NCBI GenBank assembly: GCA_008632985.1
Contig: QPGO01000038.1
Location: 273,939 to 337,938 of the forward strand
DNA from: Psammoneis japonica
Taxonomy: Eukaryota
Direction of reading: 5' to 3'
Length of the DNA: 64,000 nucleotides
Positions 6,001 to 64,000 of the stretch are shown one piece after another. Each line of letters opens with the position of its first letter. Within the stretch, counting starts at the first letter, position 1. Below the pieces are notes generated by a model, which made no database searches, had not been told where the DNA came from, and was given only the letters and a program-made list of their open reading frames with translations. The position numbers and the translations under genes were made by a program.

Positions 6001-6335
6001 TGCCATCACATTTTCTTTGTTCACTGTCCCAGTTGCTTGTGTTAGACTGGCGACATTTGTGCCACAAGATCCGTCTTCTCTGTGCGCTCTGCCGCATGAT
6101 GGCGGTTTGAAGCTGTCTTTGACTGACTGCTTGATTAAAATGACAAAGGGCAATGTGTGATGACTCAAAAAAAAGCACCCCGTTGAGCAAGCAAAAATTC
6201 GCCTTCATGTGCGGCATGACCTTGTCACGTCCTCTGCCTCATGCACGGTGCAAATTGTGTGCCGCGCACAAAGCACAATTGCTTGAAGAAGGATGACCTT
6301 CCATGTCAGCATTGTCGTCATGTGCGGTGTCCCAC
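1..6335. mobile_element. Heavily mutated (TpA/CpG-depleted) repeat/pseudogene debris; the first ~1.5 kb may be a non-LTR retroelement remnant on the - strand
   Basis: TA nearly absent; only spurious Cys/His/Gln-rich ORFs. The - strand peptide 'ILQKLGM...GVVFQQLCAVQDFGMSNLHRQ' only weakly resembles the post-RT region of non-LTR elements. Confidence 0.4.
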
Positions 6336-11270: not shown

Positions 11271-12288
11271 ACCAAAAATTCCTTGTATTTGGTTTCGAAT
11301 AAGCACTTCCGTCTTATTTGCTTTCGCCCGTAGGAACCATACTGTCTCCTACTGACGGTGTCTCTGAACGCACGAAATGACCCCGTTATATACATCCTAA
11401 ATATCATATATAAATATATGTACACGTCATTTCATATGAATACCTACGTAAAATGTACATCCCTTCAACTTTGAACGTTTCTAGTTCACTCTAAACATCC
11501 ACCAGAGACCACAGTAAAGGCTGCGTTGGAAAGAGCAGATTCTCAGCTTTCCATCGATGTGCCGTTTGTTCCCCACGTACAATTTGTACTGGAGATACAG
11601 TCGTGGCAGTCCAAGCGGTTTTATGTCCAGCACAGCGTACAAATTGTACAGGGGTCACCGATCTAGTGTTTATTATTTATTATCCCGGACGATTACTTAT
11701 TCGTTAGACTTTATTGGCGAAGAAACGTGACAATTGCATTTAGGTAACTTTTATTCGAACATTTAGTGTGAGTTGAACTTACGTCAATGATGACGTCATA
11801 ACGGTCTTTCTGGGTAGGCGTGCGTCGGAACTGCCTGACACCGGCCTCGTTTGGCGTCGAAGGCTTAAATAAAATAGTAATAGATGATGTCATCAACTTA
11901 AGTAGGAAAATGTCCGACGTGTCTTCATGTCTTACGGATTTTATTTATGAAAATAATAAACACTGCATTTACGGTCAAATATAGAAATAAAATTATTTGG
12001 ATTCGTTAGCAATACAATGCTCGTGGAAATAATACGAAAAACAATAAACACTAGATGTGCGCGCTGCGCGATTTCGATTAGATCAGCGATGCCTGTACTG
12101 GGAAAACCCCAAACGCACTGGCGATCAGACCGCCTTCTACGATCTCACTTCCAAAGACGCCCCCCAAGCAGGTTGTTGTGGATGGATCGCTCGCAAGACT
12201 CCTCGCACTTCATTCAACGCGTCGAATGAGAGAGACGACGAAATTGTGAGCAAAAAAAGAAATCAACCCACAACAACAAACCAGGAAC

Positions 12289-14070
12289 ATGTCTTTCATC
12301 GCCAAGGGCAAGTCTTTCTGCTGTGCGCCTCTTCTCATGTTTCCTCCAGTTTGCCACAACTGTGACCATGTTCTCTTTCTGGTCTTTCACCGGCTCATTG
12401 ACAATCACATGCATTCAGCTCTCCAGACCCTTTCTCTCCTCGTAGTTTTGACCGAACCAACTCAGGCATGGGACTTCATGTCGACTCTCTTGGGTTCTTG
12501 TGAGGAAGAAGCGTGTGACCCATCCTTCCATGGAATGGTCCCTGTGCACATGGTCCACCATGGAACGGATGAAGCTTGTGAACAGAAGTGCGTTTGTGGC
12601 GTCAAACTTTATGAAAAAAAGGGACACACGTGTGGGCCGTGTGTTCCAAAGAGGTTTTGTTCATTCATTCCAGGCCAGTTTGAAATCGAGCCCTCTTTCG
12701 AACGAATTGAGACCATTGTCCAAGAGCTTGATGGAAATTTGCATGGCGACTTCGTCGAAAAGTCCAATCTTCTGAACCCAGATGAGTGCTTGGCTGTCAA
12801 GAGCTGCGCCGACGAAGTCTTTGGAAAGGCTCTCATCGAGGGTCCCTCCATTCAGTGTGGGAAGAACATCACCGAAGACTTTTGTTTTGTGCTCTGCACA
12901 GTTTGGCACATTGACCCTTCAACCACCAGGGGAGCAAATTGGAGATTTGCTCTGCTTGGAGATTTGTGATGTGTTGTGCACTTTTGCAATGATGTGATGA
13001 ACACAGCACAAAAGTGTCACATCGTGCACAATCTGCGCAAAGCACACCACGTGCGTTGCTTGTTGGGAGGAGCAAATCTCCGCCGGCGGAGATTTGTTTG
13101 CTCCAAGGGTGTGGCATCATTGCTCTGTTTGTGACAGCAATTCATGACAACCTCCATTGTCAAAGGTTGAGATCCAGTTCCTCTCTGAAAGTCGACATTG
13201 AACTTTCTAACTTGCAAAAAGGGTTCCCCCAGATTTTTGGCAAGTGCGCGTTCCAAAACAAAAACGCACAGACAAAACATTGTTCATGTCTGAAATTGCT
13301 TCATTTGCCACATTTGTGACACAAGCAAGCAAATCTCCACCCATGGAGATTTGCTCAAGTCCGGTGGTTGAAGGGTCAAACTCCTTCAAATTTGATTGTT
13401 TTGAAAATCGAAAGGTGAGTGTGAAAAAAAAAAGTTTCGTGCACACTCACCCGATTTGGGAGAAAATGATTTTGAAGGAGTTTGTTGTGCCATGTGCAAA
13501 AATGAGCCAGTGATGGGAATCAAACCTGTGGGTGTCACCTGGAGCTGGAGCAGGCCCATGGGCAAGCTTCTTGCATGGCATGCAGCCCACTCACTTTGTG
13601 GTGTGGTGACACATGCACCGCAGTCTTGGCTGCCCCAAAGTTCTCATTGCCACAAGGACGTGCTGTGTGAACTGCACTTGACCCAGCCAAATGCACTCAA
13701 TTCTGTGTGTTTGAGTGTGCGCTCTCCAACAGAGCTTGTGAAGACCTTCATTGCGAAGTTCGCGCTCACCCCCCACAAACTGGGCGGGGGCCATCTTCCA
13801 CCCGAGTTTTTGCCAAAAGAGGTGAGTGTGCATGGCAGAACAGCTGCATGGATGAGGTGAAAGATGCTGGAAGAATGACTCCAACATGTGGCTCAGTGTG
13901 GGGGCACATTTCATTGATTTTGGCAACACGTGTTGGGTGGGGGGGGGTGGGGGAATTTGCTCGAGCGCTGAGAAATGACCAGCAGCAAAGAAGAGAGCTT
14001 CCAGGTGTGGCTGTTTACGATGACATCGAACATGCAGAAAAAACTTCACAATTTGTTCTGGGTGCCTGAA
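12289..14070 (+). pseudogene. Degraded host gene (possibly secreted, Cys-rich N-terminus) interrupted by a MITE
   Basis: ORF 12289..12969 reads like protein (signal-like 'MHSALQTLSLLVVLTEPTQA', 'FEIEPSFERIETIVQELDGNL') up to the MITE. Coding-like sequence and a GTGAGT donor resume after 13379. The region is TA-depleted. Confidence 0.45.
12915..13375. mobile_element. piggyBac-like MITE (~460 bp)
   Basis: TIR CCCTTCAACCACC (12915-12927) / GGTGGTTGAAGGG (13363-13375). Flanks are TTGA (12911-14) and TCAA (13376-79), each one transition from TTAA. Internal palindromes are built on CAAATCTCC...GGAGATTTG. Confidence 0.75.
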
Positions 14071-14511
14071 ATGACAAGATGGCTTGATCATTGTTTTTGT
14101 TGCATCAGTCTGTTCTCAAGCACCGCTCACTCCGGCGCACAGAACACATGCCGCCACCGCCGCAAAGCCCTGGAAAACACTGATCGCCACAACATCTGTC
14201 GTCTCTGAATTTTTTTGCTGCCACCACATCACGTGGGCCTCTGAAATTTGTTCTAGTTGGTGATGCAGAAACAAAGACCTGCAGATTGTTCATTTTTCGT
14301 TTCTCTTGCTTCCTTCCTTTGCTCCACAGGTGGAGAGGATGCGACTGACGGACGATGGTCGAATCAATCGAGCGAGCGAGCGGCGACCGGAGCGATAGGC
14401 GAGGGATTCATTCCGCGGACCAACTTATTCTCGCCGCCGACGGACGAGATTGAAGATGGCGGGCAAAGATCTTGTCAAGCATTATTCAAGCTGAACTGTC
14501 GCTCGTTAGCC

Positions 14512-17789: not shown

Positions 17790-18190
17790 CATCTTGCTCT
17801 GCTCACCACACAGCAAACACATGCTCTTAGAGCCGGGGCGTGTTTTACAGACTTTGAACTGAGCTGCAACATTGACAGCTCATGATCTGTGGCACTCATC
17901 CAAGATGCCACTCAACCTTTGAGATTGAAGCAAGCAGCAAGATGTGGCAACTGCTGATGAGCTCAAAAGGAAAGAAGCAAGTGGAGTTTGGAGATCTCAG
18001 CTCTCCTGAGTGGTGTGGGGTTGAACCAACCAAAGTGCTTCTCTGCAGTGCCCCCCTCTGCAAAGCTGAGAAAGACACAAAGAGAGTCCATCAATGTCAG
18101 AATTTTTTGCCTGAGAAAGTGTGCAACAAGCCCCTGGGGAACAAGCAGCACCTTGTTGCACTTTGCAGCATTTGCCACAATGCAGTGACA
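17790..18190 (+). pseudogene. Hypermutated partial paralog of the downstream FG-GAP/ASPIC gene
   Basis: 'MICGTHPRCHSTFEIEASSKMWQLLMSSKG..FGDLSSPEW..HQCQNFLPEKVC..HLVALCSI' aligns with 'VICGTRPGRHGIFELEASKTWRPLKNSKG..FGDLNSPEY..HRCKSFLPKNVC..HHVALCSI' at ~20680-21015. Confidence 0.85.
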
Positions 18191-19548
18191 GCATGCACAC
18201 CAACAGCATGCTGACTGTTTGAGCAGCTGCTTGCCCGCGGACACGCCAGTCTCAAGAGCGGCAGCTTTGTCTGTTGTGTGCCACTGGTCTCTGGTTTCAT
18301 GTGCACCTGCTTGGCCAAGCAGGGCCATCTTGTGGCTCTGCTCTGAGAGTGCTTGTCCAAAAGAACTCTTGGGGTGACCTCACAAAAGGGTGGTGCAAGA
18401 AGGGAGATCTGCAGAGAGAAAGTGAAATTTGGAGCCAGAGAAGCAAGACACTGCTGCCTTGTGGCTTTTGCCATCACAAACAAGCTCTTCAGCCACAGGC
18501 ACACTCATCTGCACCAAGCCTTGTGAGCAGATGCACATGTGATGCTCAGCCATGAGCAACCAACTTTTCACCCAACAAAGTGTGGGCACGCGGGCAAGCT
18601 GGGGCAGAGACACAATCTTGAGCACATGTTGAAGCTTGGCAACCTTGCAGCTCAGCTGCAAATGGAAGCCAGCAATCTCTTCTCACAAAGCAGGTGCACA
18701 CTTCAACCTGGTCCACAGAGAGGGAAAGAGCCGAGCAAGAAGTTAATGGCACCTGTCACACCACACTGGCACAAGCAATGGCAGCCAGCACCCCCTTGTC
18801 AGAGACAAAAGTGTGTTTCTTTCACAAGATGAGAGCATGTTTTTTGCTTTCCAGCAGCTGCTGCTTTGTGCAGGAGCAAGGATTTTTGGTTTTGCTCCGC
18901 CCTCCCTGTCTGCCACCCAGCTGATGTTCTCACCCGCACCTGGCCTTTGTGACAAGCTTTCCTCTCGCACAAACACTTGTTTTCTTTCACTTCTTCCATG
19001 CAACATGTCCATTTTCAAGGTTTGCACGCAAGGCTTGTGATTCAGAGACAGCAACCGACTGCAAGGCTGCCAAAATGGTGCGAGACAGAGACAGCAAACA
19101 ATGTGCACAACCAGATCATTGTTCGAACAGACAGCACAGCAAGGCACGACAAACAATCTGTGCACAGCAAACTCAGATGTCCCAAAGAAGGAAATTGGCA
19201 TCGTTGTGGCCTAAGACATTTGCATTATGCCAGCAACGTTAAATGTTCTTTAACATTTATGCATTCCACTATTCATGGTTTTGATCTGATCAAACATCAA
19301 ACTGAGTGCGGCCATGCCACTGACACCAGATGACTATCCACTATGTGCCCTAGGCTAGACTATCGAGAACCTCCGCCGTGGAAAGAGAAGAGTACTTCAT
19401 GGACCTACAGTCTGTATTATCCGAATTCTGACAAGATGAACGATCGGATTCACATTCTCGTATTGTACGCTGAGATGAGAGGCAGTAAAGATCAAACCCA
19501 CTGATCACAGGACTGATACGCTGATCGTTTATACCCTGCCGAAGCATC

Positions 19549-38389: not shown

Positions 38390-39130
38390 ATTTTGTGATG
38401 CTGAATGGCACTGAACTCTCATGCCAAGAGTTCCGTGATGTGCTCTTCTTGCGGTGGTGTGGCGGTGCTCCACAGGACCTCCGGGAGCACTGTGGTGGGT
38501 GTGGGCGCAAGTTCTCCATGAGCCACGCCCTTCAGTGCAAGAAGGGTGGCCCGGTCATCTCATGACATGATGAAGTGTGTGACAACCCAGTGACCCAATT
38601 GGCAAGGCTCACAAACCTTCCTGCACACACAACGAACCTCTCATCAAACCCACTGGGTCCCATCTTGGGAAGCCCAAACACCTCCAACAGAGTTCCCCAG
38701 GCAACACCAACTCCAACAAGTCCAAGGACAGCAATCATGGAGATCTTCTCGCATTGAGATTCTGGGATGAAAGGACAGACATGGTGATGGACATCAGAGC
38801 CCCTGACATGGATGCAAAGTCACACCTGTCCAAACACCACCAGAAGAAGTCCCCCAGAAAACCACGAACGTGAGAAAAAGCACAAGTGCACCTCAAGCCC
38901 TGTCTTGAACAATGCCATCATTTCACTCCATTTGTTGTGTTGTGTGATGGGCTGCTTGTTGGCAAAAAAGCCAAGGTGATGCTCCCCGCAAGATTGTGTC
39001 AAAACTGTCTGCTGACAAGTGGCAAAAGCCATGCTTGGAAGCATGTGGCAGCATCAATGTGAGAATGAGCATCACCACAGTTGGGGCAACCCATTGTTGC
39101 CTCAGGGGATCATGAATTCCCACATCCCAG
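38390..39130 (+). mobile_element. 3' fragment of a non-LTR retrotransposon with restriction-like endonuclease (CRE-like), hypermutated
   Basis: 'ELSCQEFRDVLFLR..CGGCGRKFSMSHALQCKKGG..HDEVCD', 'GDLL', 'DAKSHLSK', 'EREKKHKC', 'CHHFTPFVV', 'KWQKPC', 'RMSITTVGATHCCLRGS'. Confidence 0.85.
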
Positions 39131-39929
39131 ATCAGCTCCAGACATCCCCAGCAGGAGAATGGCACATTTCTGTTCCTTTGCAAACATCAAAGAAGGGCTG
39201 TTCTTTGGACGGACTGCGCTCATTTAGACAGAATGCTGACCTGCCATCTGCAGAGACTGCCAATGTGCTCCTGACAAGACAACGACAGCTCTTCCCAAAT
39301 CCCAACACACCAACTGTGGTGCCACCACAATCCACTCAAATTTCACACACAGATGGCAAAACTTGTGCATGAAAACTGCCCCTTTTGCTTGCATGATTGC
39401 ACCAACTGCGTGATGCCCACCACTTTTCAAATGAAAAAAGAGCGGCAAAATGTGAATCACAGGAAATTGCACATGTGCAATGTGCGCACAAAAATCATTC
39501 AGAGATGCTTCCACCACACTGTGAAAGAGAAACAATGACAACACAAGTTGACGAGGATGATCTTTCATTCCAACAAAACATTCAAGTTGATTTTTGGACA
39601 GGCACAATGGGTCAAGTCAAAGATTTTCTTTGCAAGATCTGTCTTCAAGGCTCGCAAAGTGCACAGTGCCTGTGGGCAGATGTGGACAGCACCACATCCC
39701 TCTGTCATGCACGCCCCTTGCTTGCATTGTTTCTTGCCTTCAATTCACAGCAAAATCAAGAGCAACCAAAGTCTGGTGGCCACATGGTCATTCTAATTGA
39801 GCTCTCCAAGCTCTTTCTCAGACAACTGGGCAAATGAAAGAGGCTGTGAAATGCAGCTTTTTTGCCCCCCACAAATGTTTTGCATCAGTGGAGTGCATCA
39901 CTGTGAGCCGACACTTCAGCTTGATTGAA

Positions 39930-40760
39930 TTGCCACATGAAGTGCGCTTGCTTGTTTGAGTGCATGCTCCTCATTGTGCAAGAATCTCATTTGTTTGCCT
40001 CCAGAAATTGGCCAATTGCAGCAACTTCATCTGCTGAAAGTTCTTTGTTGCACAAGTCTTGAGCAACTTCCTCTGTGGAGATTGGGCAGTTGCAAAGAAC
40101 TGGCACGCTTGAATTTGGAAGGTTGCGCATCCCTTGCACAGCTGGCAAGAGAGAAATGGGACATCTCCGTGGGTTGGTTTTGCTCAATCTGCCATCATTA
40201 TTTGGGATTGATTTGTTGTCTTGCCATTGAAATTATGGTCATTTGACCAACTTGCAAAAATTGTTCTTGAGTGGTGTGCATCTGGAAGAGTTGCCAAGTG
40301 CTGTTGGAAATCTGGCAAATCTTGTGTCTTTGTGTCCAAGCAGATGCTCTCCAGCATTGCAGAGCTGCCAATGGAAATTCAGGCATTGATGAATTTGCAA
40401 ATGCTGTTTCTTTGACAAATGCACTCAACTGACAAGAGATCCCAGAAGTCATGCTGCAGGCACTGGCAAACTTGAGAGTGCTTGCTTTGCAGCAATGCAG
40501 GAGATCCAGTGACAACACTGTAGGAAATTGGAGAGGCTTTGCATTGGTTGTGTCAAGGGTGGCTGCTCCATTCAATGCCATGCAACCTGAAATGAATTTC
40601 TGAGTGCTTGGCATGGAGCAGTGCCAGATGCTGTCTGCTCCACAAAGATGACATGTCGTTTGGTTTGTGGCCCAACATTTTGGCAAACTCAAGCAATGTT
40701 CCAACTGTGTTGTTCTTGTTGTTCTTGTCATTCTTGACAAACAACCCAGAGACATGGTGG
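39930..40760 (+). pseudogene. Leucine-rich-repeat gene remnant, hypermutated
   Basis: 'LICLPPEIGQLQQLHLLKVLCCTSLEQLP...LARLNLEGCASLAQL', 'IAELPMEIQALMNLQML'. Confidence 0.8.
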
Positions 40761-41892
40761 TGGGGTGCCACTGAGGAACACACAAGAGCAGAGATGAGTG
40801 ATCTCACACACAGCATGCGTGAACAATGCCACCGATGACTTGGGAAGCAACACAAATAAAAGCTCTTTTAATGCCAGCACCAGCAGTTTGCAGCTTCGAC
40901 AGCTCACTCCAGGGAGAGTGAAACTTCTGCAGTGCTTGCTTTTCGTTTTATGGCATTCCCTGCAGTTCAAAAACTGATGATGTTGTTTTGCATCGATTCC
41001 GAACAGCCGTGCTCATTGGAATGTCGCTCTCGGAGGAGCTCGAATCGCCCCAGTCGTCTTCATGTGATGGTGCACATGTCCAAAAACAATTCCTAGAAAG
41101 TCGAGAATCGGTGGGCCTGACCCTCCAATAAAAAAGGTCTGCAAAGAAAGAAATCAACGAGGCAATGAGATTCCGAAAATACGACAGGGCTCCAACGAAC
41201 GCAGTGTTGCGCCTTTGCTCTACAATCCAAAGTCACCAATTCACACTCACCTGCGCAAGAAAGGCCCACGGCAGTAACTCTGCTTTTAGTGTGAACATAT
41301 CGAACATGTTGATTTCCATTCCTTCAAAAAAGTCGGCTCTAGACATAATAAAGGTACTGCGTCAGGTTGTGTCCAAAAAAGACTGAACTCATACCGAGAC
41401 AGCCGTATCCGACCAACATGTCATATACGGTCGGTTGTGATGAAGTCGCTCCAAGGTACTCATGTACGTCCAGACAAAGTGATCTACTATAGAGAAGATT
41501 TTGTAAAAATAGTGTTGGGTTGAGGTTACCAAGAGTTGGTTCCACAGGGAAAGAGAGCATCTCCACACTCTTATCGGTAATGTAAGGCTACAAAGTCTTA
41601 GCACAAAGTAAGCAACTCTTTCATCGCCCATTCACATAGCTAGATGCCTTGGTTGTTGTCCCGTGAAGGTGAAACTACCCCAACGGTGTTGCCTTGGAGC
41701 TTGCCAGTGAAGCATTGCGATTGCAATCGCGAAAGATTAGAGATGCGAGCCTCCCCACAAACCCCGTTTGGGAATTTATACCATAGACATAAAAAAAGTG
41801 AAGGAAACTTCCGTTTTGAGCCAACTCGTTGATATCGCCACAAATCGAATTGGGTTTCGCCACGAGAAACTCAGAGAAGCAACGGACGAACA

Positions 41893-43099: not shown

Positions 43100-46000
43100 G
43101 CTTTTCGTCTGTCCTGCATCGCATGCGATGGATCAACACCCGCGATTTCACAATGGCGGCGGCGGGTGAAGAAGTGGTGTGCAACTTACCTCTTCTCGCT
43201 AACCATCAGAGGCATTGGCCTAGACGACTTCGCTTGCATGCTTGCCTGTCGTGCTCACCCCGAAGCATGCACCGTGTTTTGAAAATCTCTCGTTTCACAA
43301 GCGCCATCTTCAACCTTTCCTGTGTGTGGCTTTGTGCGCTGCGAACGATTACAATGACAAGATGAGAGGGACTGAAGTTATCGATTGTGTGCTTTGGTGG
43401 CGTAGATGGAGAGAGGTTAGGGAATTTTTTGTTGGTGTGACTGGGGAGCACTCTGTGTGCCCACAGCACTGTGTCATGTGTGGGGAGTTGGGACGAATGA
43501 AGCCATTCGGAGTGGGAACGAGAGGAATGGTGGAAAAGGTGAAAAGGTTCAGCAGACACAGGAAAGAAATGCATGGTGATGCTGCCGTGTCTGTTCACTC
43601 TGCATGACATTTCCAACAACACATCTGTCGAGGCAGGTGTGTCGTCATGTTCTCCTCGTTTGCATTTTGGGTGCCGGAACGTTGCTGTTGTGCCTGAAAA
43701 AAAAATCGACTAGATCTGCCGACTTGTGACATGTGCCTCACCCAGACTACGAGAAAATTGGCACTCTATGAGTGACAACTTTGTGCATCCCAGTTGGAGC
43801 AACTTGCTGGGGAAACAACAATGACGCAGAGTTGTGGTGGATCACTTGTTGTTGCTGCTTGCTCTGTGCATCATTCAACAACAAGAAGACATTGTAAGGT
43901 GTTGCCGATCATGGTGGAGAAATGTAATTTCGAGTTCCAACTGTGACTTTCAGAGGCCACTGGTGGCACTGGCAAGACATGAAGGCTTGACATGAAGGCT
44001 TGCTCGGTCCAGAGCCAGGAGAGTGAACTCCTTTTGGCGATGGACAGTTGGAGACATGCGTGATGGATGTCCTCTGTTTGCAAGAGTTGCAATTTTGTGG
44101 ACAGACATTTCTTTGGCATTGTCTGCAGCCTCTCGCTTGCCAGGGTTAAAGGCCTCTCCCACCACACGCATTGGCTTTGTCGAGGCACAGAGGGCGATGG
44201 TCTGAAGCTTTGCGCCTCTGCAGTGAGTGTTGCAGCATGTGCGTTGAGCAACCGACCACAATGTTTCACGAGGAGCACATGGAAGACAAGTGCACATGAC
44301 AAGTGGATGCTCTTTGTGTTTCAACGCAGTGGACTTTTTGAGCCTTGGTGCAAAACAGAAACAGGAGGGGGGGTGTCTTTCTCCACGCAAACAATGCTTG
44401 AGATTGAGCAACATGCCAAACTTCAATGGAAAAGTTGCATTCAACTTGGTGTGGTGAGTTTGGGGAGCAACAAGTTTTTGCAACCACGACAGAAATGGCA
44501 GGTTTTGGGATGAAGAACTTCTTCAAACTGCACGCAGGTGCAACTCTTGACCATGGCACACGGTGGGTGCATGGCCTTCCCATCGCACAAGTTCGTGGAT
44601 GATCCTGAGTCAATTGCAGTGGTGTCAAAGACTCAACAGGGGCTTGATGAGATGATGGTGAGCAAGACTGGTGATGAGGAAGACTGCTTTCATCTGCAGT
44701 TGTGTGCATCTGACAATGTGTGTTCTTCTGAATGCACTTTGTTCTCTTCCTGTGACACTCTGATGTTTGCAATTCATGCACCCAAGGGGTTGCAGCTTCT
44801 CAAAACCAACCATTTCGGCAAGTGGCCCCAACATGGTGGATTGAGCATCAGTGAAGCCACACTGATGAATTCCAACTCACATCCGCTTGTTGTTCCATTT
44901 TCACAGTCATTGTCATTGCTGTCCTTTTTGCACTGCATGTGTGTCCTGAACTCTTGGATCCAAGTGTGAGTTGGCCATTGCTCAAGCCAAGCATTTGCAG
45001 TGCGCAACCCCACCACAATGGATTGTCAAAATTGTGCACGCATCAATCAGTCGAGTGGCTCACATCACTCTTCGTTGAATCCTCCTTTGCCATGGGAAAG
45101 TTGATCGTGTGCTGACCGGTGGTTTGCCATGGGGTGCAACAAAGCACAAGGGCAGAGAACTGGCATGTCCATCACCACATGGTGCTTGCAGCACAGGGGC
45201 GTGATTCTGAGGCTTTGTCATGCAAACACAGGTGATCGGAGCAATGTTGTGTTTTGCAATGTGAAGGAACCTCCTTGTGCTTTTCATTGTCCCTTGGATT
45301 CAACTTTCTTTCTCCGGTTGGCACGTTGGTCATTTTGCCGGGCATTCAATTTCTGCTGGCATTTTTTCTTGAGAGTCTCAAGTTGCTTCTTGAAGGCCTT
45401 GAACTTGGGATGCGCACATGGACTTCGACAATGCGCTCCCGTTCTGTCACTCACATCCATTGGACCACTGTGAAGCATCAAAGCAGGTGCATTCGATGGA
45501 CCAGCAAATGCTGCTGGCACAGGATGGCACTGGGTTTGTTGCTGGTTTGAATTGCAGATGCTGTCGAAGGGGGTGTTGATGTGCGTGTTTGCAGGGACCA
45601 ACCCAAGCACTTTCCATCTTGCCAGCCTTTCCCTTTTGTGCGTGTCGTTTTGATGCTTCAATGCTCGTTTCTTCTTGTTCTCTTGGGTCTGGGCCAACAT
45701 GGCAGATGAACAGGCTTTCTTTGGGTTGACTCTGTTGCCATTCTTGGTCACTCTTTTTTTTCTTTGAGCACGTTCAAGTTGGCCGCGATGGCAGCAGCAG
45801 CGGGGCAGATGGCGCATGATTGACAGCTTCTGCTGGAATGACCAGAGGTTTGTCTGAAGGACTCTTGATGTTGGATGGGGTGTCTCTTGGTTCTTCATTG
45901 GCATTTGTGGTCAAAGGAGGAACCAATCCCATGCGATCAATGACTTTTGTCAGAAGAACAACCGGTTGCAGGAAGGAAAAGAAGAGGGAGCCGGCGTCAC

Positions 46001-47450
46001 ATGATCTGACCTGACGTTGCTTGTTTCATCACCGCCTGGATCTGCAGACACGGTTGATGGTGGAATGGATGGACTTTGATCAATTGCTTGTGATGCAGCC
46101 ACTTCAGGTGCATCTGAAGTGGTTGCCAGAGTGTTGCTTGATTCATCTCCCGCCTGAGCAGCGTTTGTGGTCAAAGGAGAGGCATTGATGGAAGGCAAGC
46201 ATGATTTTCTTCTGGTGCCACAATTGGCATCTTCGCAAGGACCAACCCAAGCACTTTCCATCTCACCAGCATTTCCCTCTTGCATGTCTTGGATCAATGC
46301 TTCGTCGCTCGTTTTGTTTTGTTCTCTTTGATCCAGGCAAGCAACATGGATGAACATGCTTTCTTTGGGTTGAGTCTGCCTCCATTCGGGGTCACTTTGG
46401 TTTTCATTTTCTTTGAATGCTTCTGAGTGGCCCCAGTTGGCCCCGGCAACGAGAGCTGCACCAATGGATCATTGTCCAATGGGAAGGCAGCTGTTTTGTC
46501 ACCGTTCTGAGCTTCTGGCACCGCCTCGGGCTTGGCGTGAAGGTGTCGTGACAGGCTGCGTGCCGTCCAGGAAGTCTTGCATTGGAAAGTCAATCTCAAT
46601 GCAATGACAACCGAGAGAGTGCACAGCTTGGCATCATTCTCAAACACGACATTCACTTGGATGTCACCACTTTTTGTGAGGAGGCTTTTGAAAAATGTGG
46701 TCACGGTGGACTGGATCATGCAGACGTGCTTGGTTTTCAAAAACTTCTTGATTGTGAGCTCTGCGCCATCGACACGCGGGACCGATCAACATGGCGCATG
46801 GCTCGCAGTGCTGGTGATGACAGTGCTGTTGATTTCAGTGTCCAACTTGACAAACTTGTTGGCCACGATGTGGAAGTTCTCAAGGGCTTGAGCGAATGAG
46901 TCGTTCGTGAGCATCGAAAGCCTGACAACATGCTCTTTGCGGATTTTGGTGGCAAGGCGGCAGAGTTTCGAAATGCTCGATTTGTGCCATGCCTCTTGCG
47001 ACAAGAAGCACATGTGGTTGACTTCGTCAATCACAACCTGCGACAAGGGACGGGCTTGAATCGTGCCTGCTCTGGCGACATTGGAAAGCATGGAGTTTCG
47101 CTTCAACGCAACAAAAACGGAAAACATGGCCTTGACGGCACGCTTGCCAATCAAAGCGATCAAAGTCACGACATCCACAATGGCGGTGACAGAGAGAGCG
47201 ATGAGTGCGAGCGGGGAGACGTTCATGGTTGCTTTTGTGGGAAGGTGAATGGTCTGTGTTGTATGCCTCTCCGAGTTGGAAAAGTGACAGCGTCGTGTTC
47301 GATGTTCTCGATCTTCGCGTGGCAACGGCTCTCAGCATGGTTCTACGCAGCAGCACGCAGCGGCCAGAAACGAGGGTGAAACTTGTTTCAATCTTCGGCG
47401 AAAACTCACGATCGATTTCAAAATGCCGTGACGCTTGGTTTTGTCACCAT
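43100..47450 (-). mobile_element. TpA-depleted degenerate element or gene of unknown class, with two HMG-box-like repeats
   Basis: TA nearly absent. A direct repeat 45601-45755 / 46245-46400 encodes 'NPKKACSS..LA...ENK.KRA.KH...KRE.L.RWKVLG' on the - strand. Confidence 0.45.
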
Positions 47451-54164: not shown

Positions 54165-56142
54165 CTAGTCGATGGCGGTAATGTCACGCCCAAAGAGACG
54201 CGACTTGACCCAGTCAATGGCCACCAGAGCGCGATTCCTCATGGACGCTTGTTTCATCAAATACACGCTTCTCCATAGACCAAATCCAACCGTTCCAGTA
54301 GCCTTGACGCGTGTCTTTTCGTCTGGTGTTACTTGAACCTGTGCAAGTGCTGAAAACCCACCCGTATATGCCAAAATGCCCATGTCAAGGAACTGGAACG
54401 GTACCATGTACTCGTCCGTCTGGACGGCAAAGGAAGCAATCGCATCCATTAAGCTATTGGATTTCTCCGGATCTCGTTTGGGTGGTAACATAACACCCTC
54501 CTCACTGTACTCTGTATCAAGGTTGGCCTTTGACAAGACGTGGGCAAGGAACTCTCCTTCTTGAGCAGCGACTTGGGCGGTGCTCGGCAAGCAAGCCATT
54601 TGCGTACAGGCGCAGTCACCCAATGCAAAGATGCGGCCCTTGCCATTCACGGCTCGAAGCCACGGATCTACCGCGAGCTTTCCGCGAGCCTTTTCTTGGG
54701 CTTCAACTTGTCTCCCACCAATAGCCTCAATGATATCTAGTGTAATGGGCAAAGGTCCGATACCGCCGGCCCATACCGCCAAGCCATACGGTATTTTTGA
54801 GCCATCAGCAAGGTCAATGGTATCGGCGGTCACCTCTTTGACAGACTTGTTGATAATAAGTTCAGTCAACCCATCTGGGAACAAACTTTTGAGGGCTGGG
54901 TCCTTGATGTTGGTACCGCGAGTAAGCACATTAATGGCTGTTTCTCGCAAGCTCTCGTCAAAGGGCCTCAGAATTACTGGCGTTGCTTCAATAACCTTGA
55001 TTTGAGCGTCTTTGAGTAAATGGGGATAATACTTTGGACCGTCTTCTTCGATGAAGTCTCGAAGCTCGGCTGCAAATTCAATACCCGTTGGACCAGCACC
55101 AATCACGGCAAAGGTCAACAGCTTGCGACGCTCTTGTTCCGATTGACCTGGAAAATTCGCTCTTTCAAACAAACTGACAATCTTGCGCCGAATGTGCCTT
55201 GCATCATTAATCTGCTTCAAAAAGAGGCAGTGCTCTTCGACACCGGGAATACCAAATGTGTTGGTTTTCGCTCCGACCGCCACCACAAGCCGATCATACT
55301 TGACTTCAATGTCTGTAATCTCGCATTCCTCATCGCATTGAACCCCTTGGCAAGTTACAATTCGAGCCTCGGTATCGATAGAGGATGCGGCTGCCTCCAA
55401 GTAGTTGGCTTGTCGATTGAACTGAGAAAGAGAAGGGCAAAACGAACGTATGAAGTGAGCGCATCAACATTCTGGAAAATGCACCGTTATTCTTCATACG
55501 AATCAACGTACCTCTCGAATCGGTTGAGTAATACTCCGAACGTCCACAGTACCTACGCTAGCACCTGCGAGCATGGGAGTGAACAAAAAGTAGTTCCGTG
55601 GACTGATAACCGTCACGTCGTAGTGATCATTGTCGATCTCGCTCAATAAGGCAGCAGCTCCCCAGCCAGTGCCCAAAATAACCAATTTCTCTTTTGTCTC
55701 CGTGATTGCGCTGTTGACGGCAACTTTCTTAATCAACGGACTTGGAACTAGGTCCCCCAATACCTTGGCTGCCTTTTCCATAAGGAAGAGAGGATATGCA
55801 CGAGGCTTGGTGAGACGTCCTAGCTTTGCTTGGAGCTTCTCGTCCTGTACTTGGCATGCGTAGCTACAGCAATCGCCAGGACTCTTGCTCGGCAAACCTT
55901 GCAATACCCCGTGATCCTGGGCTTTGGCATTGACTATGTCGCGTTGTCCTGCTGCCTCCTCCACAGCTATGCGGGTGGGCTTTTCGCCAATGTAATAGCG
56001 GCACGTCTCTTTGATGCGCTGGCTGGGTGGCGTCGTTCTCCCCAACAAAAGTTCTTGGGCCAATGCCGGTGAATGACGAAGTCTCTCTCACCATGCAAGA
56101 GACTAGTGCAACGAATCCGATAATTCGTGTTGTTAGCTTCAT
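54165..56142 (-). CDS. NDH2: Type II (alternative) NAD(P)H dehydrogenase, probably plastid-targeted; intron 55422-55511, one frameshift in the N-terminal region
   Basis: LVILGTGWGA, ISPRNYFLFTPML, YDRLVVAVGA, FAVIGAGPTGIEFAAEL, IFALGDCA, LPSTAQVAAQEGEFLA, LWRSVYL..Q.S.RNR..V..DW....FGRD; signal ending 'ETSSF'. Confidence 0.93.
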
Positions 56143-57455
56143 TTTTTCTCACTTTGTGTGTTTGTTTTGAGAACAAGCGGTGGAGCGATGAAAAGCCAGA
56201 CAGAGGGTTCGCATTCAAGAGGTTTCTCCGAAACACATTTCGCGCGAGCGAGGAAAGGCCTGCCATTTTCACCGAGTCGGCTCTTTTGCACGGGAGAACA
56301 CGCGAGAGTGGGCGGGCATGGTGATCTTCAAAAGGATCACCCAATTGTCATACTTTGACCACAACAAAAAGCAGAACATTGTTGTCGTCATGTGATTGCA
56401 AAGAGGGACAAGCAAGTCGACTCACTCTGAACTTCAAGTTTTCTTTCTAGACTGCAAAGTTCACAGAAATCCAAGCAGACCGACTTTGTCAGACTGGCGG
56501 GACATTGCTCAAGCTCCTCAGTGGGGTTTGTTTTTCGTTGCTTCTCTGTCAAGTAGTTCCTCGTGAAGACAATGGTGCAAAACGTCAGTCAGAAAGAAAC
56601 TGATGCACAATTGGGCGATTTTGAGCTACGATTTTTCTGTTTCATGCGATCGTCATGGTGTTGATCCCAGTCGAGGAGGCTGACAGTGTGTGTTTGCGGT
56701 CTCTGCGTGTTTCAAAAGACGTGCTTTCACACAAGGCACAGCACAATGGCATTCGAGAGAAACCAGCCAAAAATCGAGAAAGCATGTTGTCGCCCCTGGC
56801 ATGGCTCGTAACTTGGTGGCATTTTGCCATCCCCTTCAAACATGAGAGCAAACAAGCTTCGAAACGCACTGTGCCTCGTCTTGTCCACGGGTGTTCCCTG
56901 GATGCAATGCCCAAGCAGGTGGTTGTCCTTTGATCCAAATGTGACAGTGAAAAAGACAGCCACCTGAGGCAGCCAAAATGACGTGCCGACTGTCGCCATG
57001 TCCACCTCTTGTTTCAAGCCGAGGTTCAGGAGAGCAAAAGTCATCGAGTGTGAAAGGGCAGTCTTGAAAATGAGTGCATGAACCATGAGAATGTGAGCTT
57101 GAAAAAAAGTGTCATGTGGATGAATGGCGCTCTTGTGTAAATCCGCCAGTGCGATGCAGTCCTGATGGACAAGTGGAACAGTCTGAGGATGGACAGAATG
57201 TGTCTGGAGGTGCCGGCGTTCAAAGATTTCACCATCTTGACTGAAGCCAAGGTGTGCAGTGACTGTGTGGGGTGTGCAAGCACCAAGAACATGCGCAGAC
57301 AAAGGATCCCTTTGGGCTTCATTGTCAAAGGGTGTAAAAATGTGTCAGTCAAAAGCTGGCAGTGGCATTTCTGTCAACAGCATGGTCCACCCACGCGGAA
57401 ATGAGCCAGATGACAGCACAAGCTGGGGTGACAACAACCATCTAAAGCAGACACA

Positions 57456-57769
57456 TGTCAACAGCATCCACTGTCAAAGTGCTCATGATCATTGTGAAAG
57501 TCGAAATCTGCAAGAATGCTCATGATCATTGTGAAAGTCGAAATCTGCAAGAAGTGAGAGAGAAGAGAAGAGAGCCCCAAAAGCAACCCAAAAGATCTGA
57601 AGGGACCGAAGGTGTCACTTCAGCACTGAGTTCCACACATTTGATGGCAGATCAGACAAAGAAATGATGAATGACCTGAAAAAGCGATTCACAAGGAGGA
57701 TGTGCTCCCACACGTGACCAACCCATGTCATCAACTCAGAAACCAATGACTCAGAAAGTCAGCTCTCAT
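57456..57769 (-). repeat. Putative 3' LTR of the copia, containing a 37-bp tandem duplication
   Basis: Starts TG just after the PPT and ends ...TGTTGACA. TGCTCATGATCATTGTGAAAGTCGAAATCTGCAAGAA occurs twice (57480-57553). The 5' LTR is outside the window, so the boundary is unconfirmed. Confidence 0.55.
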
Positions 57770-60700
57770 CGCTCTCCCTCTCGAGAAGACGTCGACTGCA
57801 AGACATCAGATCGCCACTGAAAATTTAAAATGAAGTTCGCACCAAAAACACAACCCATCATGCAATGATGCGAAACCACATGCAGAGACACAACAACCCC
57901 AATTGCCATGCCTGATTGCCATTGCTCCATTTCACACATGACAAATGCATTTGAACCCAAACCAACATGCACACAAGTGCAAATGTCAACCGCCTGCCAC
58001 CCCATCAACTTCTTCGGCAAATGCTCAAACTTTTCTTGAACTGGACCCTTTGTGAAGACATCCGCCAACTGTTCCTTGCTGGCAATCTTTTGAATGTGAG
58101 TCAAATGGTCAGGTTGAGCAATGTGAGACTTGAAGAAATGATGCTTCACTGCGACATGCTTGGTCGCCAATGACAAAGCACTGTTGTTGTCCTCAAAAAC
58201 GGCAGAGTGGAACAAAATGTCATCATTCCCATCAACACTCATCAAAGAGGCAACCTCCTTGACAAGTCCTTTCATGGGTGGCAGGACTCTCATTGCCTGA
58301 GACAAGGCAACATGCTCTGCCTTGAGAGTGGACAACAATGCCATTTCGGTCTGCAACTTGGAAGCCCAAATCAAAGGGCTGTCACCAATGGTCAGTGCAT
58401 GACCAGAGTGACTCTTGACACAAACAGGATCTTGAGGATCTTCATGGTTCCAAAGTCTTGCAAAATCCACGTCACAGCAACAATCCAATCTCGAATTGTC
58501 AGACATGGTGAAAATCATGCCACGATCCGAAGTCTTCTGAAGATGATGGACGACATGCTTGACTGCTTCCTCATCATGACTCTTCTTGGGATTGTGGGTG
58601 AATCAAGCACAACCATGCACCACACATTGAATGTCAGGCCTTGTGTTGGAAGCCAAATGAAGCATTGTGCCAATGACACTTGCATGGCTCCACGACTCGA
58701 CCTGCTCCGGTCTGTCAGCATCCGCAGCCAATGGACCAGAGCTGGCTGGAGCAGCCTTGGCATTGCAGCCAACCATGTTGGTGGCCGCAATGATCTTCTG
58801 AACAAGTCCTTTCTGTGACAGATGGACAGCACCAGCCTCGTGGTCCTTTTCAACATTGACTCCAAGAAATCCATTTGCATCATCCTCAATGTAAAGCTTG
58901 CATCCATTTGCCTTGAGCTGATCAACAATTTTGTCAATCTTGGACAAATCCTTGGCAAAGAACAGACAGTTGTCAATGTGGACGAGACAAACAACATGAT
59001 GCTGGAACCAAGTCGTTGCAGCTTGACGCAATCTGCAGAGATTCTTGTTCAATTTCAAGACGTGGTCCCCGTCTGCACCCACTTCAAACAATTTGGGCAG
59101 CTCAACATGCACGTTTTCCCCGATGTCTGCTTGAGCAAATGCAAGAGCACAGTCAACTTGATGAGAAGCTGGACCGTGCAGATTCGACAAACTCATCAAA
59201 AGTCAAACCGTGCTTTGACTGACGACCGGAGCATGGGTCTTGAAGAATTCCATGCCCTCTTGTTGGTGCTGTCCTTGGACACAAAACCGTGCCTTGAACT
59301 TCTTGAGCCATCCATCAGGGTGTCTCTTGACCTTGAATGCCCAAGTGCCGGGCAATGTGTCAGTGTCAGCAGGCACCGAATCGCGCAAAACCGGAGCAAA
59401 CGAATTTCGACGCATCAAATCATTTGTCTCTGAGCACATGGCCTTCTTGAATTCTTCTGCGCAAGGACCTGCCATCGCTTCATGATGTGAAGGAGTGTCA
59501 GGGTCTCCAACCTTCTTGCCAGCAAAAGAGTCCAACAAATGGCTCGACAATGGACAGATGCCGTCCACTCCACATCTCCGTCCACGTCAGACATGAGAGC
59601 ATGTGTCTTCGCAAACTCCGCAGTCCGACAATCAGCACCAAACCACTTGGATGGATTAAAATAAAACCAGCAACCCCTTTGAGCACATGCCCATCACAAC
59701 CATGTTGATCCTTGCCTTCACAGCCATGACGATCTGGCGATCAAACAGTCTGTCCAGAATGCGTCCAGATCAGACTGCGAGCAGCCGGTTCTTTGGGATG
59801 AGGGTCATCGTTCTTGTCAATGGCCAAAGGTGCTTCTGGAGACATGGAACTCGTGAGTCTCCCTCTGGAGAGTGCTCTGCACCAAATGGAGTTAACGGAG
59901 ACTCGATGCCAGAAGGTGAGACATCATCATGTGTGCAATCAGGAGATGGAGGAGAATCTTGCAGAACACTGGGTTGTCTTGGAGTGTCAGACCTCCTGCG
60001 AAGAGAAGACTGACACAAAGAAGAGGTCCCAGCATCAACTCTTGAGTTCCTCTCCCTCTGTTCCACTGGAATCGAGTTCCCAGCCCAACGTTGCCTCCTG
60101 ATTTCTTCTCGCTGTTCGCGTCTTTCATGCAGCTCCGCTTCCGCAAGCCGGTTGTCCGATGACTGCGGTGGCACAGCCAGTGCCATCATCAGTGTCCACT
60201 GTGTGACGTGAAGTGGCAAGAAGATCACGCCAATTCCTTGGTGGCCTTTGCTCATCATCAGAGTGAACTGTCTCAAACCAGTTGTCGCAGACAACATGGA
60301 ATTGAGCGGACATGGAACCTGTCCTGAGATTCCTGATTAAACCAACAGCACTGGCATGCAATGGAGAGAAGCCCACAAACTGACCACGACAACTGCAGGC
60401 CTTCCAAAAAGGTGTCTTCTTCCCATCTTGCAAAGTGGGATCCAACACATGAGTCGGACATCCCCAAATGGGTGAATTTGTGAGTGTCAGAGTTGAAGAA
60501 AGTTTCACTCCCGCAAAGACTTCCTCCGGACACAATCCGTTGAAATCCAGTCATGGGGTCAGATTCCATGATTGAACAGAATGACTTTTGGCCATGGGCC
60601 ACAAGTCCATCTCTGCTGTGTCCGGCCATCAAACTGCAGCATGAAACATCATGGTTCGGGCACATTCAGCAACAGCATGTGTCGCTTGCTCCACAATTGT

Positions 60701-63088
60701 GTTGTGATGATGTGCCCCAACACCGCTGAGCTTCCTGCCCTGTCCAGCAGCCTCCAATTCCTTGACAAACTTGTCACTGACAAAGACTCCGTCATCCAAT
60801 TGGCACTTTTGAACAGCAATGCCTGCAGAAGCAGCCTCCCTCTCAAAGGCCACTTTGCTCTTGACAGTCTCGAAAGCACCTGATGAAACTTGGTGATGCA
60901 CAGAGACCTTGCCCAAAGCAATGTCAACAAAAACAGCACCACCACCACATTTGTCCCTGCCTCCTTCATCTTGCCACAGGATTGGAGTGGACGTCCTCAT
61001 GTTGAAGAGACACGCTGATCAGTGGCTGCCAGCTGTCCAGGATGAAGAATGTTTGCCTTCATGGCTTGATCCTGTTCCGGAACCTTGCCAGTCTTGGTCG
61101 CACCGGTGGAACAACGAGTCATTCCACCGCACTGACATGAAGCACATTTGGGATTTGGCACGGACGTAGAACCAACAATCCTTGCAGCATCTCCAAGGTG
61201 CCCTTGACAAGCCAACCATTTGACATGATCAAACCCAAGATGACCAAGACGAAAATGCCACTGCAATGGTCGCTTCTGCTTCGCAGACAAATTTTGGTTG
61301 AATTTGTTGGCAACACATGCGTGGATTTGCTTCTTCTGTGCAATGGTGGAGAAATTGTTTCTCCCAATCACCACTGGCAGGTCATTCGCCTTGTGATGAG
61401 GCATTGCAATCTTGCCGCCATCCCTCCATGAGAAGAATGCATGATCCTTGGAAGTGTTGATGTCGAGCAGACATCCCACCCCACTTCCTTCTTTGTCGTG
61501 ACCACAGTGCGTTGCACTCAACAATCACATGGGAGAGGAGAGAATGAAGAAACAACTTGTGCAAATGTGTCACTCTCATCCTGTGTCATCGAATGCCATC
61601 CATTCAACAATGCCAGTGCCCTTGACATCAACAGGTCCTCTGACTCTGAGTGAAGTTTTGGAGTCCGTGAACAACTCGAGGGTCCCTGGCACGAAATCAT
61701 CCACATCACAAGTGGAGGCAATGTTCACACCAGAATCGAAGAGCATTTCGAATTGCTTGTCATGGGGAGCCAAGAAAGTCATGGGCAAGTGATCTGTCTG
61801 CTCCTTCAAATCGACGTTCGCGAAGATTCGTGTGAGCGTGCATGAGATCAATTCCGAATTTGAAAATTTGAAATCTCCAGTCGTGTGAGCTGTTGGGACT
61901 CGACAGCCACAAGCACACTGCACTAAACCAGAATTCAAAGGGACAGAATCTGCATCTTGATGTTCCATGAGCTCTTAAATCGAATCGTCACAACAGGAAC
62001 CACAACACGAGAACTCAAAATCAGGCATCTTGTTGAGCAGACGATCAAGTTCTTGAGGTGTCATGAACCGTTTCTTGGAAGACTCAGGCTGCAGGGCTTG
62101 ATGAACCCCAATGAACATCAAAATGACAACCAACAAATGAATGAATCGGTGACAAAAAACTGAACCGAGTGCGCTTTGTTGGGTCTTGTGGAACAATTCT
62201 TGCTTGGATGACATTCCTGGATCGGGCGGCTCCTTGTTGTTGGGTGTCTCCACATCTCTGCAAATGAATCCAGGCATCCACAAGAAAGCCCATGGATGAC
62301 ACCCATAAATTGCAAAACGTGTCATGGCAAAAGCCCACACAGATGTCATGTGCACCGACAAAATGTTGAGGACTTCAGGGTGCATCTTGAGAGGAACTTG
62401 TCCTTGCTCTTGTTTGACATTGGTCTCCCTCTGACGATCAGTTTGGACAAGATTTGGGCCTTTCATGAACAGCAAACTGATGATGAAACTCATCCACTGG
62501 CCCACCAGTTTAACATCGTTCGTGCGAAGTGCAAGCCATGCAGATGCGATTGTTTGTTTGACTCACCACCGGAGCAGACAAATCTTGAGGTTGACCTTGA
62601 TCAGTGCCTTGAATGGAGGGATCCCAATTCACACGACATTCATTGGAATTTGCAGCACGGCCCTCTGACTGGTCTTGAGGCACAGCACTGTTCCCAGCAC
62701 TCGGATTCCGCACCGGATGACAGTTTGGGTTAGGACCCCCCTCTCAAGCAGCATGATTCGATGTCTCGTGAGTGGTCCAGCAAGCACATCTGCCACACCA
62801 ACACTCGGTGACACCGTTGGCCACATGAGCATGAGGCTCATCATGCCTGGGAGGAATCCTGCGAGGATCCCTTGGAGGTCCTCGACCACTGTCATTGTCT
62901 CCATGACCACCTCAACCACGTCCACGGCCTCCTCTGCCACCTCGGCCTCTTCCTTGACCTCAGCCACTGCGTCCACCACGTCCACCACACGGCCGCCTCC
63001 TTGAACAATCGGGTGAGGGCAATCAGGACAAACATGGCCCTTTTCGCCACAATTGCAGCAGGTGCAATCATCTTGACAGGTGAGAAAG

Positions 63089-63539
63089 TGCAGCATGCAT
63101 GCAGACAAAAGGTTGTTTTGTCATGCCCTTTGTGACATTTAAAGGCTGCAACACGTCGCCGTGACACATTGACTCTCACTGGCAGCTGTGTGTTGCACTC
63201 CTCCCCATGTGTCACGCGTCCATGTGGCTCTTTGCCAATGTGCGCTGACACTGCACGGTTTTGGCAGAACAGTGTGGGTGCGCACGAAGGAACACACAGA
63301 ACTGCACATAGTTTAACGCGTTCGACAGTGATCAACGTTGCTGCAGACAACTCCCACTCAGGGTTTCGAACCCCTGGCCTCCTGCCTGATGGTTATGATG
63401 AACCACTCCGCCATGAATTCACAATCACAACGCAGCATGCATGCAGACAAAAGGTCATTTTGTCACGCCCTTTGTGACATTTAAAGGCTGTAACACGTCG
63501 CCGTGACACATTGGCTCTTGTTGGCAGCTGTGCATTGCA
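63089..63539 (-). mobile_element. TRIM (miniature LTR element) inserted in the copia gag
   Basis: 109-bp direct repeats 63089-63197 and 63431-63539 with TG/CG...CA ends; 4-bp TSD AAAG (63085-88, 63540-43); PPT GGGGAGGAG on the - strand (63198-63206). Confidence 0.9.
63350..63420 (-). promoter_or_regulatory. tRNA-derived Pol III A/B-box segment inside the TRIM
   Basis: - strand TGGCGGAGTGG (A box) and GGTTCGAAACCC (B box/T-loop) at tRNA-like spacing; no clean cloverleaf. Confidence 0.6.
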
Positions 63540-64000
63540 AAAGGACGCAGCTCCAGAATCGCCTTGATTCAAAGGCGTCCACTTGTCACGATCAACCAAG
63601 CTTGTGCAAGCCTCTTGTTGGCACGCACAACAAGATCAGTGCACGCGTGCCTCATGGGATCAATGTCGACTTCATTGAAGACAATCAAGAGCTGAATCCT
63701 GAAGGTCTTGACAGCAGATGTCGCAAGTCCTTCACACATGATTGAAGAAGCATCTTCAGGCAACTTGTGACATCCTTCCAGCTTCCTGCAAATCTCCACA
63801 ATCTTTGCAGCACAATGCAGCTCATTCATGACCAGCTTGAAAATCACGGGTCCACACGCAGGACCACAGACACACTTTTTTGGACATCACCATGAAGAGC
63901 AACGCCAATGGAGTTGAGAAAGAACTTGGCGGACCAAAGCAAGTTCTGCTTGTCATGCTGGTCACCATTCAAGAGCAACTCTTGCACGTGGTCTTCAATC

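Follow-up and report, generated by a model that had tools for sequence, protein, structure and literature searches.

To our knowledge, hypermutation directed at repeats was long known only as C-to-T change, as in fungal repeat-induced point mutation (RIP) and in editing by APOBEC enzymes. In animals, APOBEC3 and ADAR inactivate retroelements and viruses through deamination-type transitions with a neighbour preference. A:T-to-G:C hypermutation specific to the TpA dinucleotide was described in a preprint for viral DNA integrated in Bigelowiella natans, both of nucleocytoplasmic large DNA viruses (NCLDV) and of virophages (Mettrop et al., 2026; bioRxiv 10.64898/2026.01.13.699255). Of the 231 de novo mutations reported there for two regions of integrated viral DNA, 230 were A-to-G or T-to-C, all on TpA, at a rate of ~6e-7 per site per generation, about 1000-fold over background. 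The same preprint lists 124 clusters poor in TpA and rich in CpA+TpG, finds reverse-transcriptase and DDE domains enriched in TpA-poor genes, and names an ADAT2-like candidate enzyme from sequence and predicted structure only. Here we describe a 64,000-nucleotide stretch of the diatom Psammoneis japonica (assembly GCA_008632985.1, contig QPGO01000038.1, positions 273,939 to 337,938 of the forward strand; hereafter the window, to which all DNA-level results refer unless other sequences are named). In this window, a dead Ty1/copia retrotransposon and at least five other sharply bounded blocks have lost TpA almost to completion; in the host genes that flank them, TpA is normal. The cause is very probably a targeted hypermutation of resident DNA from TpA to CpA/TpG, a judgement that does not extend to the enzyme.

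The copia element was delimited using open reading frames (ORFs), Pfam and tblastn, and it consists of the following pieces:

57766..63120, minus strand: degenerate Ty1/copia internal region, its pieces in differing frames (ORF listing, Pfam and tblastn)
62629-63120, minus strand: gag zinc-knuckle ORF (ORF listing)
61576-61974, minus strand: protease-like piece with DSG (ORF listing)
60997-61524, 60629-61018 and 60125-60550, minus strand: integrase pieces (ORF listing; one matches Pfam gag_pre-integrs)
59203-59586 and 58603-59202, minus strand: reverse-transcriptase pieces (Pfam RVT_2)
57766-58602, minus strand: RNase H piece (ORF listing)

The order on the minus strand is gag, protease, integrase, reverse transcriptase and RNase H, with the zinc knuckle at ~63.0 kb, the DSG piece at 61.6-62.0, gag_pre-integrase/integrase at 61.5-60.1, reverse transcriptase at 59.6-58.6 and RNase H at 58.6-57.8 kb. 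Integrase thus precedes reverse transcriptase, as it does in Ty1/copia elements. RVT_2 matched 58603-59202 with E = 2.8e-17 and 59203-59586 with E = 5.2e-6. The reading frames are broken, and the TGA stops derive from Arg codons. Relatives were obtained by searching the reverse-transcriptase piece against 1.84 billion representative proteins, which gave 4,506 matches at E <= 0.001; the best 150 were used, with best identities of ~42-48%. By tblastn, these 150 relatives matched this region only within the window, and the closest named small match came from the diatom Ditylum brightwellii (33% identity).

The original prediction held that tyrosines conserved in copia Pol had become His or Cys. 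All ten motifs quoted for it were found on the minus strand (58132-60460), each with the residue in question encoded by CAY or TGY (Y, pyrimidine). That all ten positions are normally Tyr was borne out for nine, in which Tyr is the majority residue (34/62 to 136/145 relatives), but not for VKRHPDG, in which the relatives have F 20 and Y 19 times out of 90. To place these residues among conserved sites in general, we took as conserved each column that was covered by 10 or more relatives and in which half or more of these agreed (tblastn of the 150 relatives on the window), and this gave 496 columns, including the following:

58143..60949, minus strand: 14 conserved Tyr columns that no longer encode Tyr; first bases of the codons at 60949, 60805, 60451, 59235, 59109, 59037, 58980 (the Tyr of YxDD), 58686, 58659, 58545, 58479, 58401, 58314 and 58143

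None of these 14 columns kept Tyr (10 His, 4 Cys), compared with 357 of 482 other conserved columns that kept their residue (Fisher p = 1.1e-8). Control residues were mostly kept (Phe 23/28, Asn 8/9, Lys 20/24), so that in the tabulation proposed earlier, here run against the 150 relatives, Tyr stood apart from Phe, Asn and Lys. Furthermore, His and Cys are not the family's usual residues at these sites: across all 150 relatives, the 14 columns hold Y 1019 times, H or C 39 times and other residues 215 times.

Since conserved columns fix the direction of change, the neighbour context of each change can be read. First-position A-to-G changes (Ile or Met to Val, Thr to Ala, Asn to Asp, Lys to Glu) were found in 11 of 11 conserved columns in which the preceding base was T, but in 0/26 after C, 0/21 after G and 1/6 after A (1/53 for bases other than T). 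Second-position A-to-G occurred in 4/14 Tyr columns versus 1/116 columns of His, Asn, Asp, Gln, Lys or Glu, and first-position T-to-C occurred in 10/14 Tyr columns versus 1/76 columns of Phe, Ser, Cys or Trp. All 11 products of second-position T-to-C were NCA codons, and both products of Ile-to-Met change were ATG. Outside the Tyr columns, second-position A-to-G and first-position T-to-C thus account for 2 of 192 columns. At the DNA level, 57990-61524 (3,535 bases) retains 6 TA dinucleotides versus ~142 expected from the background (1,581 in 39,428 bases). The cause is therefore a process on the TpA dinucleotide and not on Tyr. This process was far faster than background decay: 139 of the 496 columns had changed (37 by TA-type and 30 by CG-type change), and among the 134 columns with at least 90% consensus, 11 of 14 changes were of TA or CG type, leaving only 3 of another kind. 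The predicted polarity, TA to CA or TG, is confirmed by the conserved TAY codons that are now CAY or TGY, their direction set by the 150 relatives; decay of CpG cannot make CAY or TGY from TAY. The further claim, that loss of Tyr reliably destroys the reverse-transcriptase active site, holds insofar as the Tyr of YxDD is now His; the process itself is neither Tyr-specific nor element-specific. Targets lie in all Tyr codons, in all ATA, CTA, TTA and GTA codons and at all NNT|ANN junctions, so that exposure to the process rapidly inactivates any coding element.

The same evidence bears on whether any hypermutation took place. Selective avoidance of UpA is known in RNA viruses and messenger RNAs, according to one account (PMC3829696), and the blocks could be foreign or specialised DNA of a lineage that always avoided TA, through composition or selection against UpA or TATA, or a sequencing artefact. 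However, no copia could work without its conserved tyrosines, the catalytic one included, the reading frames are disrupted and hold TGA stops derived from Arg codons, and the direction of change is fixed by the relatives. A compositional or selective origin is thus excluded, because catalytic residues are lost and frames are broken. As for artefact, the same sequence occurs in contigs built independently, and the same signature occurs in three other assemblies (see below). A public-run contig from another pipeline matches 57775-63113 with 0 differences, which weakly disfavours an artefact of assembly, as the public run may itself be the source of the assembly. Taken together, an origin of the pattern without hypermutation is scarcely credible.

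CpG decay (CpG to TpG/CpA) has also acted on the copia element and on most of the other blocks. Diatom transposons are CpG-methylated, and the element resembles methylated transposons that have undergone CpG decay: 13 of 15 changed Arg (CGN) columns are now TGN or CAN, three TGA stops among them, all 5 Val-to-Ile changes follow C, and the CpG observed/expected ratio (o/e) of TpA-poor DNA is 0.42. The Asp-to-Asn change in the YxDD box also follows C, the signature of CpG decay. This decay accounts for the CG-type changes only (30/139).

TpA loss extends well beyond the element. TpA-poor DNA, strictly defined, comprised 13 segments (24,572 bases), which were merged to six blocks, none assigned to a strand:

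56140..64000: TpA-erased block with the copia element (TA counts, segment statistics, TA positions); runs past the window end
1..10560: TpA-erased block that contains inverted repeats; no recognised protein family
12229..14275: TpA-erased block (TA counts, segment statistics); no protein family recognised
17906..19089: TpA-erased block; on its left side, a decayed paralogue (17819-18173) of a portion of the intact ORF 19728-21515
38412..40798: TpA-erased block (TA counts, segment statistics); no protein family recognised
44045..47354: TpA-erased block, preceded by partial depletion from ~43300; the rightmost 850 bases lack TpA without any lowering of CpG

In the TpA-poor segments, TpA o/e was 0.03 (53 TAs), CpA 1.71, TpG 1.76, CpG 0.42 and GC content 0.49, versus 0.58, 1.19, 1.26, 0.93 and 0.48, respectively, in the remaining 39,428 bases. 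The whole-window TpA o/e of 0.38 is thus a mixture; bins of 500 bases hold either 0-5 or ~15-40 TAs, and the block edges are sharp to ~100 bases. The copia block reaches ~1.6 kb past the last pol piece, to ~56140. The NDH-2 gene next to it, in which TA density is normal, has its putative start codon at 55781, with the lower edge of the block ~220-360 bases upstream. In addition, two stretches (46500-47354 and 9000-10000) have 0-5 TAs per 500 bases with CpG at the background level (25-39 per 500 bases). This shows that TpA erasure does not require CpG decay and that the two processes are separable.

These blocks fall within the cluster thresholds given for B. natans (TpA 0.03, CpA 1.71 and TpG 1.76 over 24.6 kb). 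In both organisms, as far as the preprint's main text describes, TpA changes to TpG or CpA only, on both strands, in clusters depleted of TpA and enriched in CpA+TpG. TpA frequency is also similar, 0.0018 in the low-TpA gene set of B. natans versus 0.0022 (53 in 24,572) in the diatom blocks. The two cases differ in several ways. B. natans is a chlorarachniophyte (Rhizaria), whereas the host here is a diatom (Stramenopila). The target identified here is a long terminal repeat (LTR) retrotransposon, and the main text of the preprint mentions neither retrotransposons nor diatoms. The diatom blocks are near saturation, while the NCLDV region of B. natans has a Rho_TpA of 0.45. CpG decay runs alongside TpA loss here, yet is separable from it, a point on which that main text differs or is silent. 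Finally, de novo events were measured in B. natans, whereas the diatom case is read from its end-state sequence. In target class, the copia block fits the viral, transposon and other foreign DNA of the B. natans type; the five other blocks have no recognisable family, and one of them holds a gene fragment.

RIP is alike in that, in Neurospora and other fungi, dinucleotide-specific transitions limited to certain loci riddle transposons with missense and nonsense changes, according to one account (PMC7296669). Its polarity is the opposite, however: RIP turns C to T at CpA (or CpG) and raises TpA, which it forms from CpA, whereas the diatom blocks have lost TpA and gained CpA/TpG. RIP also lowers GC, whereas GC here is unchanged (0.49 vs 0.48) at a TpA o/e of 0.03. 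A further difference appeared in the block at 17906..19089. The fragment at 17819-18173 (356 bases, nearly all within the TpA-poor block) shares 72% identity with its paralogue at 20681-21012, part of an intact 595-codon ORF (19728-21515) of normal composition, with the block fragment 2.5 kb upstream. The block copy kept 0 of the 12 TAs of the intact paralogue (5 now CA, 2 TG, 5 other) and 1 of its 17 CGs (6 TG, 5 CA), and it kept CA at 19/23 and TG at 22/26 places. As an old pair without an outgroup, the paralogues provide a supportive test that is favourable yet not clean. A single copy of the pair is affected, unlike in RIP, and since erasure is limited to the fragment, duplication alone does not expose both copies.

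APOBEC3 and ADAR, as described, act on one strand's complementary DNA (cDNA) or RNA before or during replication. The copia could likewise have been edited before integration, by an ADAR- or ADAT-like enzyme on retrotransposon RNA or by a deaminase on cDNA, and the hypermutated copy then inserted, as in APOBEC3-edited retroelements. A similar preference for A that follows T (U) is shown by ADAR and by transfer RNA deaminases, as the B. natans preprint notes (bioRxiv 10.64898/2026.01.13.699255). However, the 37 polarised events on the sense strand comprise 20 T-to-C and 17 A-to-G, where editing of the sense strand only was expected to give one class; the near-equal numbers mean that both strands were hit. 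Likewise, CA and TG are balanced in 1-10600 (1192 vs 1185), and no consistent strand bias was found across the six blocks, two of which lean in opposite directions (p = 0.004 and 0.011), the other four showing no deviation. Editing before integration is also at odds with a TpA-poor block that runs ~1.6 kb beyond the last pol piece, with five other blocks that show no trace of reverse transcriptase, one of them holding a fragment of a neighbouring host-type gene, with TA loss that is ~95% complete, and with the flank preference described next, in which purine-TA-pyrimidine (RTAY) sites were lost most completely and a 3′ G was not favoured. We consider editing before integration very improbable. 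The transition is restricted to the TpA step, it has affected both strands of resident DNA, including DNA that is not retroelement, and it is confined to domains with sharp edges.

To analyse flank preference, the base 3′ of A was scored on both strands for the 53 TAs surviving in the blocks. Among survivors this base was A 54, G 26, C 18 and T 8 times, versus 664, 666, 899 and 933 in the background (chi-square p = 7e-14). Presuming that the blocks once had background composition, retention relative to background TA density was 34% for TTAA, 20% for CTAA/TTAG, 6-7% for GTAA/TTAC and GTAG/CTAC, 4% for ATAA/TTAT, less than 1% for ATAC/GTAT, and 0% for ATAT and for GTAC. Erasure is most complete at RTAY and least complete at pyrimidine-TA-purine, above all at TTAA. 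No flank preference was found in the main text of the B. natans preprint.

The favoured explanation, targeted TpA hypermutation of resident DNA, can be extended to a chemical route, and we infer an enzymatic process, with adenine deamination as its likeliest chemistry, by analogy with B. natans. Adenine at TpA would be deaminated enzymatically to hypoxanthine in silenced repeat chromatin, and hypoxanthine would be read as G at the next replication, giving TpG or CpA, as proposed for B. natans; such a process would serve to disable invading DNA. We put this route forward tentatively, as one that may or may not hold in all its steps. In amphioxus, an ADAT2 is reported to deaminate adenine in DNA (PMC10354150). 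Alternatively, the same targeted hypermutation might alter thymine, for example through oxidation to 5-hydroxymethyl- or 5-formyl-uracil by a TET/JBP-type enzyme, the product mispairing with G or being misrepaired to give T-to-C. Its sequence trace would be identical, and the strand counts of 20 and 17 fit both routes. Dinoflagellates carry thymine hypermodification at TpA. No evidence for such a modification in diatoms turned up in the literature consulted, and the B. natans report, the sole one of this signature, argues for an ADAT2-like adenine deaminase since a candidate is present. Alteration of thymine therefore seems unlikely. Decay of N6-methyladenine (6mA) was set aside as a cause: by one account (PMC12695648), eukaryotic 6mA lies at ApT in active chromatin and goes with no depletion of ApT.

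Several points weigh against these readings. All of them rest on end-state sequence, and no enzyme, inosine or de novo event was observed here. TpA is self-complementary, so that A-deamination on one strand equals T-to-C on the other, and the chemistry is not readable from the sequence. In the paralogue pair, in which polarity is not fixed, A-to-G differences also occur after A (10/30) and G (5/26). A simple link between TpA loss and CpG methylation is not established, since at 46.5-47.35 kb and 9-10 kb TpA has been lost and CpG has not. Lastly, repeats or invaders are evident as the target in the copia block and are suggested for one more block, which has the pseudogene fragment. In the five non-copia blocks, 209 ORFs (77 of at least 110 aa and 132 of 65-109 aa) gave no credible Pfam family and no trace of reverse transcriptase; a sub-threshold CobU match was taken as chance. 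The missing families would be expected if these blocks had been scrambled by the same process, and they are not evidence of block origin.

The same signature was found in other public sequences. Two of the 150 copia relatives (P0083, 381 aa; P0173, 161 aa) lack Tyr entirely, compared with a median of 3.0% Tyr. Both have His or Cys at the same columns as the copia described here, with Cys in place of the His found here at the YxDD tyrosine. A scan of metagenome contigs with P0083 gave three loci in three assemblies, at 92-96% protein identity. The three contigs have TpA o/e of 0.04, 0.09 and 0.02, CpG o/e of 0.20, 0.20 and 0.09, and CpA/TpG o/e of 1.6-1.8; their 19 surviving TAs lean the same way in the base 3′ of A (A 14, G 12, C 11, T 1). 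Tyr-free copia proteins in public collections presumably arise when TpA-erased DNA, being without TAA and TAG stops, is called as ORFs.

Further features of the copia locus were observed. No repeat pair that could represent flanking LTRs was found around the element inside the window, and the 5′ LTR would fall past base 64000. A segment at 62884-63735, in or just upstream of the gag region, is very high-copy, with a summed contig depth of 29,000-64,500 in the public run versus ~35 for single-copy parts. It contains two 108-base direct repeats (63090-63197 and 63432-63539; 91% alike), and a tandem array was looked for there and not found. Directly downstream of the RNase H piece are two tandem 37-base units (57471-57544; 89% alike), and one public-run contig omits 57463-57540, with 32 different letters in its place. 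Additional public-run contigs are 80-99% alike to the copia, so that paralogues exist; of the 548 positions that differ, 399 are transitions, with the four kinds evenly represented.

The first block has three pairs of inverted repeats between 3052 and 9053 (8439-9053/6345-6961, 91%; 8212-8442/7384-7613, 88%; 3963-4260/3052-3344, 76%), which may be arms of foldback or terminal-inverted-repeat elements. In the first pair, 560 of 617 columns are identical, and 9 of the 13 adjacent double mismatches are CA versus TG. These double mismatches fit each arm resolving one ancestral dinucleotide (TA or CG) independently; they were rejected as proof of TpA ancestry, as a CpG ancestor yields the same picture.

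The DNA of normal composition provided the following observations. For the NDH-2 ORF (54165-55463, minus strand), 568 relatives were found at E <= 1e-60, with a top match of 74%. Among its best 120 relatives, all that are named are diatoms (55-62% identity), including Bacillariaceae sp., Seminavis robusta, Fistulifera solaris, Attheya, Odontella aurita and Epithemia. These matches point to a diatom host that has no near named relative in the database. Tandem units of ~480-500 bases (73-80% alike) with overlapping ORFs occupy 50780-52696. A 667-codon acidic, repeat-rich ORF (33249-35252) contains an internal duplication of ~700 bases (33687-35107; 87% alike). An amine-oxidase ORF in the window has a best match of 41%.

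The kind of process is already known from B. natans; its occurrence in a diatom is new to the searchable literature. For TpA-only hypermutation in diatoms, no report was found in the full-text literature, subscription papers lying outside its coverage, and the B. natans preprint was the sole relevant match; it was also the sole relevant report of A-to-G genome defence in algae in that literature. The diatom case, near saturation and seen in a retrotransposon and in environmental contigs, suggests that the process is more than a peculiarity of a single species, and it identifies transposons as targets. There are practical consequences as well. TpA-erased DNA is nearly without TAA and TAG, so gene finders call long false ORFs from it, and Tyr-free “proteins” are already in public databases. 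Homology searches fail on such DNA, as with the 209 block ORFs. Since diatoms have genetic tools, a hunt for the enzyme is practical. It is conceivable, though less likely than not, that diatoms, like Bigelowiella, run an editor of resident DNA that removes TpA and is targeted to chromatin domains (a “reverse RIP”), most probably through adenine deamination in duplex or transiently opened DNA, with RTAY preferred and TTAA spared. If so, such an editor would offer a naturally occurring DNA adenine deaminase of defined motif, would be separable from cytosine methylation, and it would represent an ancient genome defence common to the SAR (Stramenopila, Alveolata and Rhizaria) supergroup.

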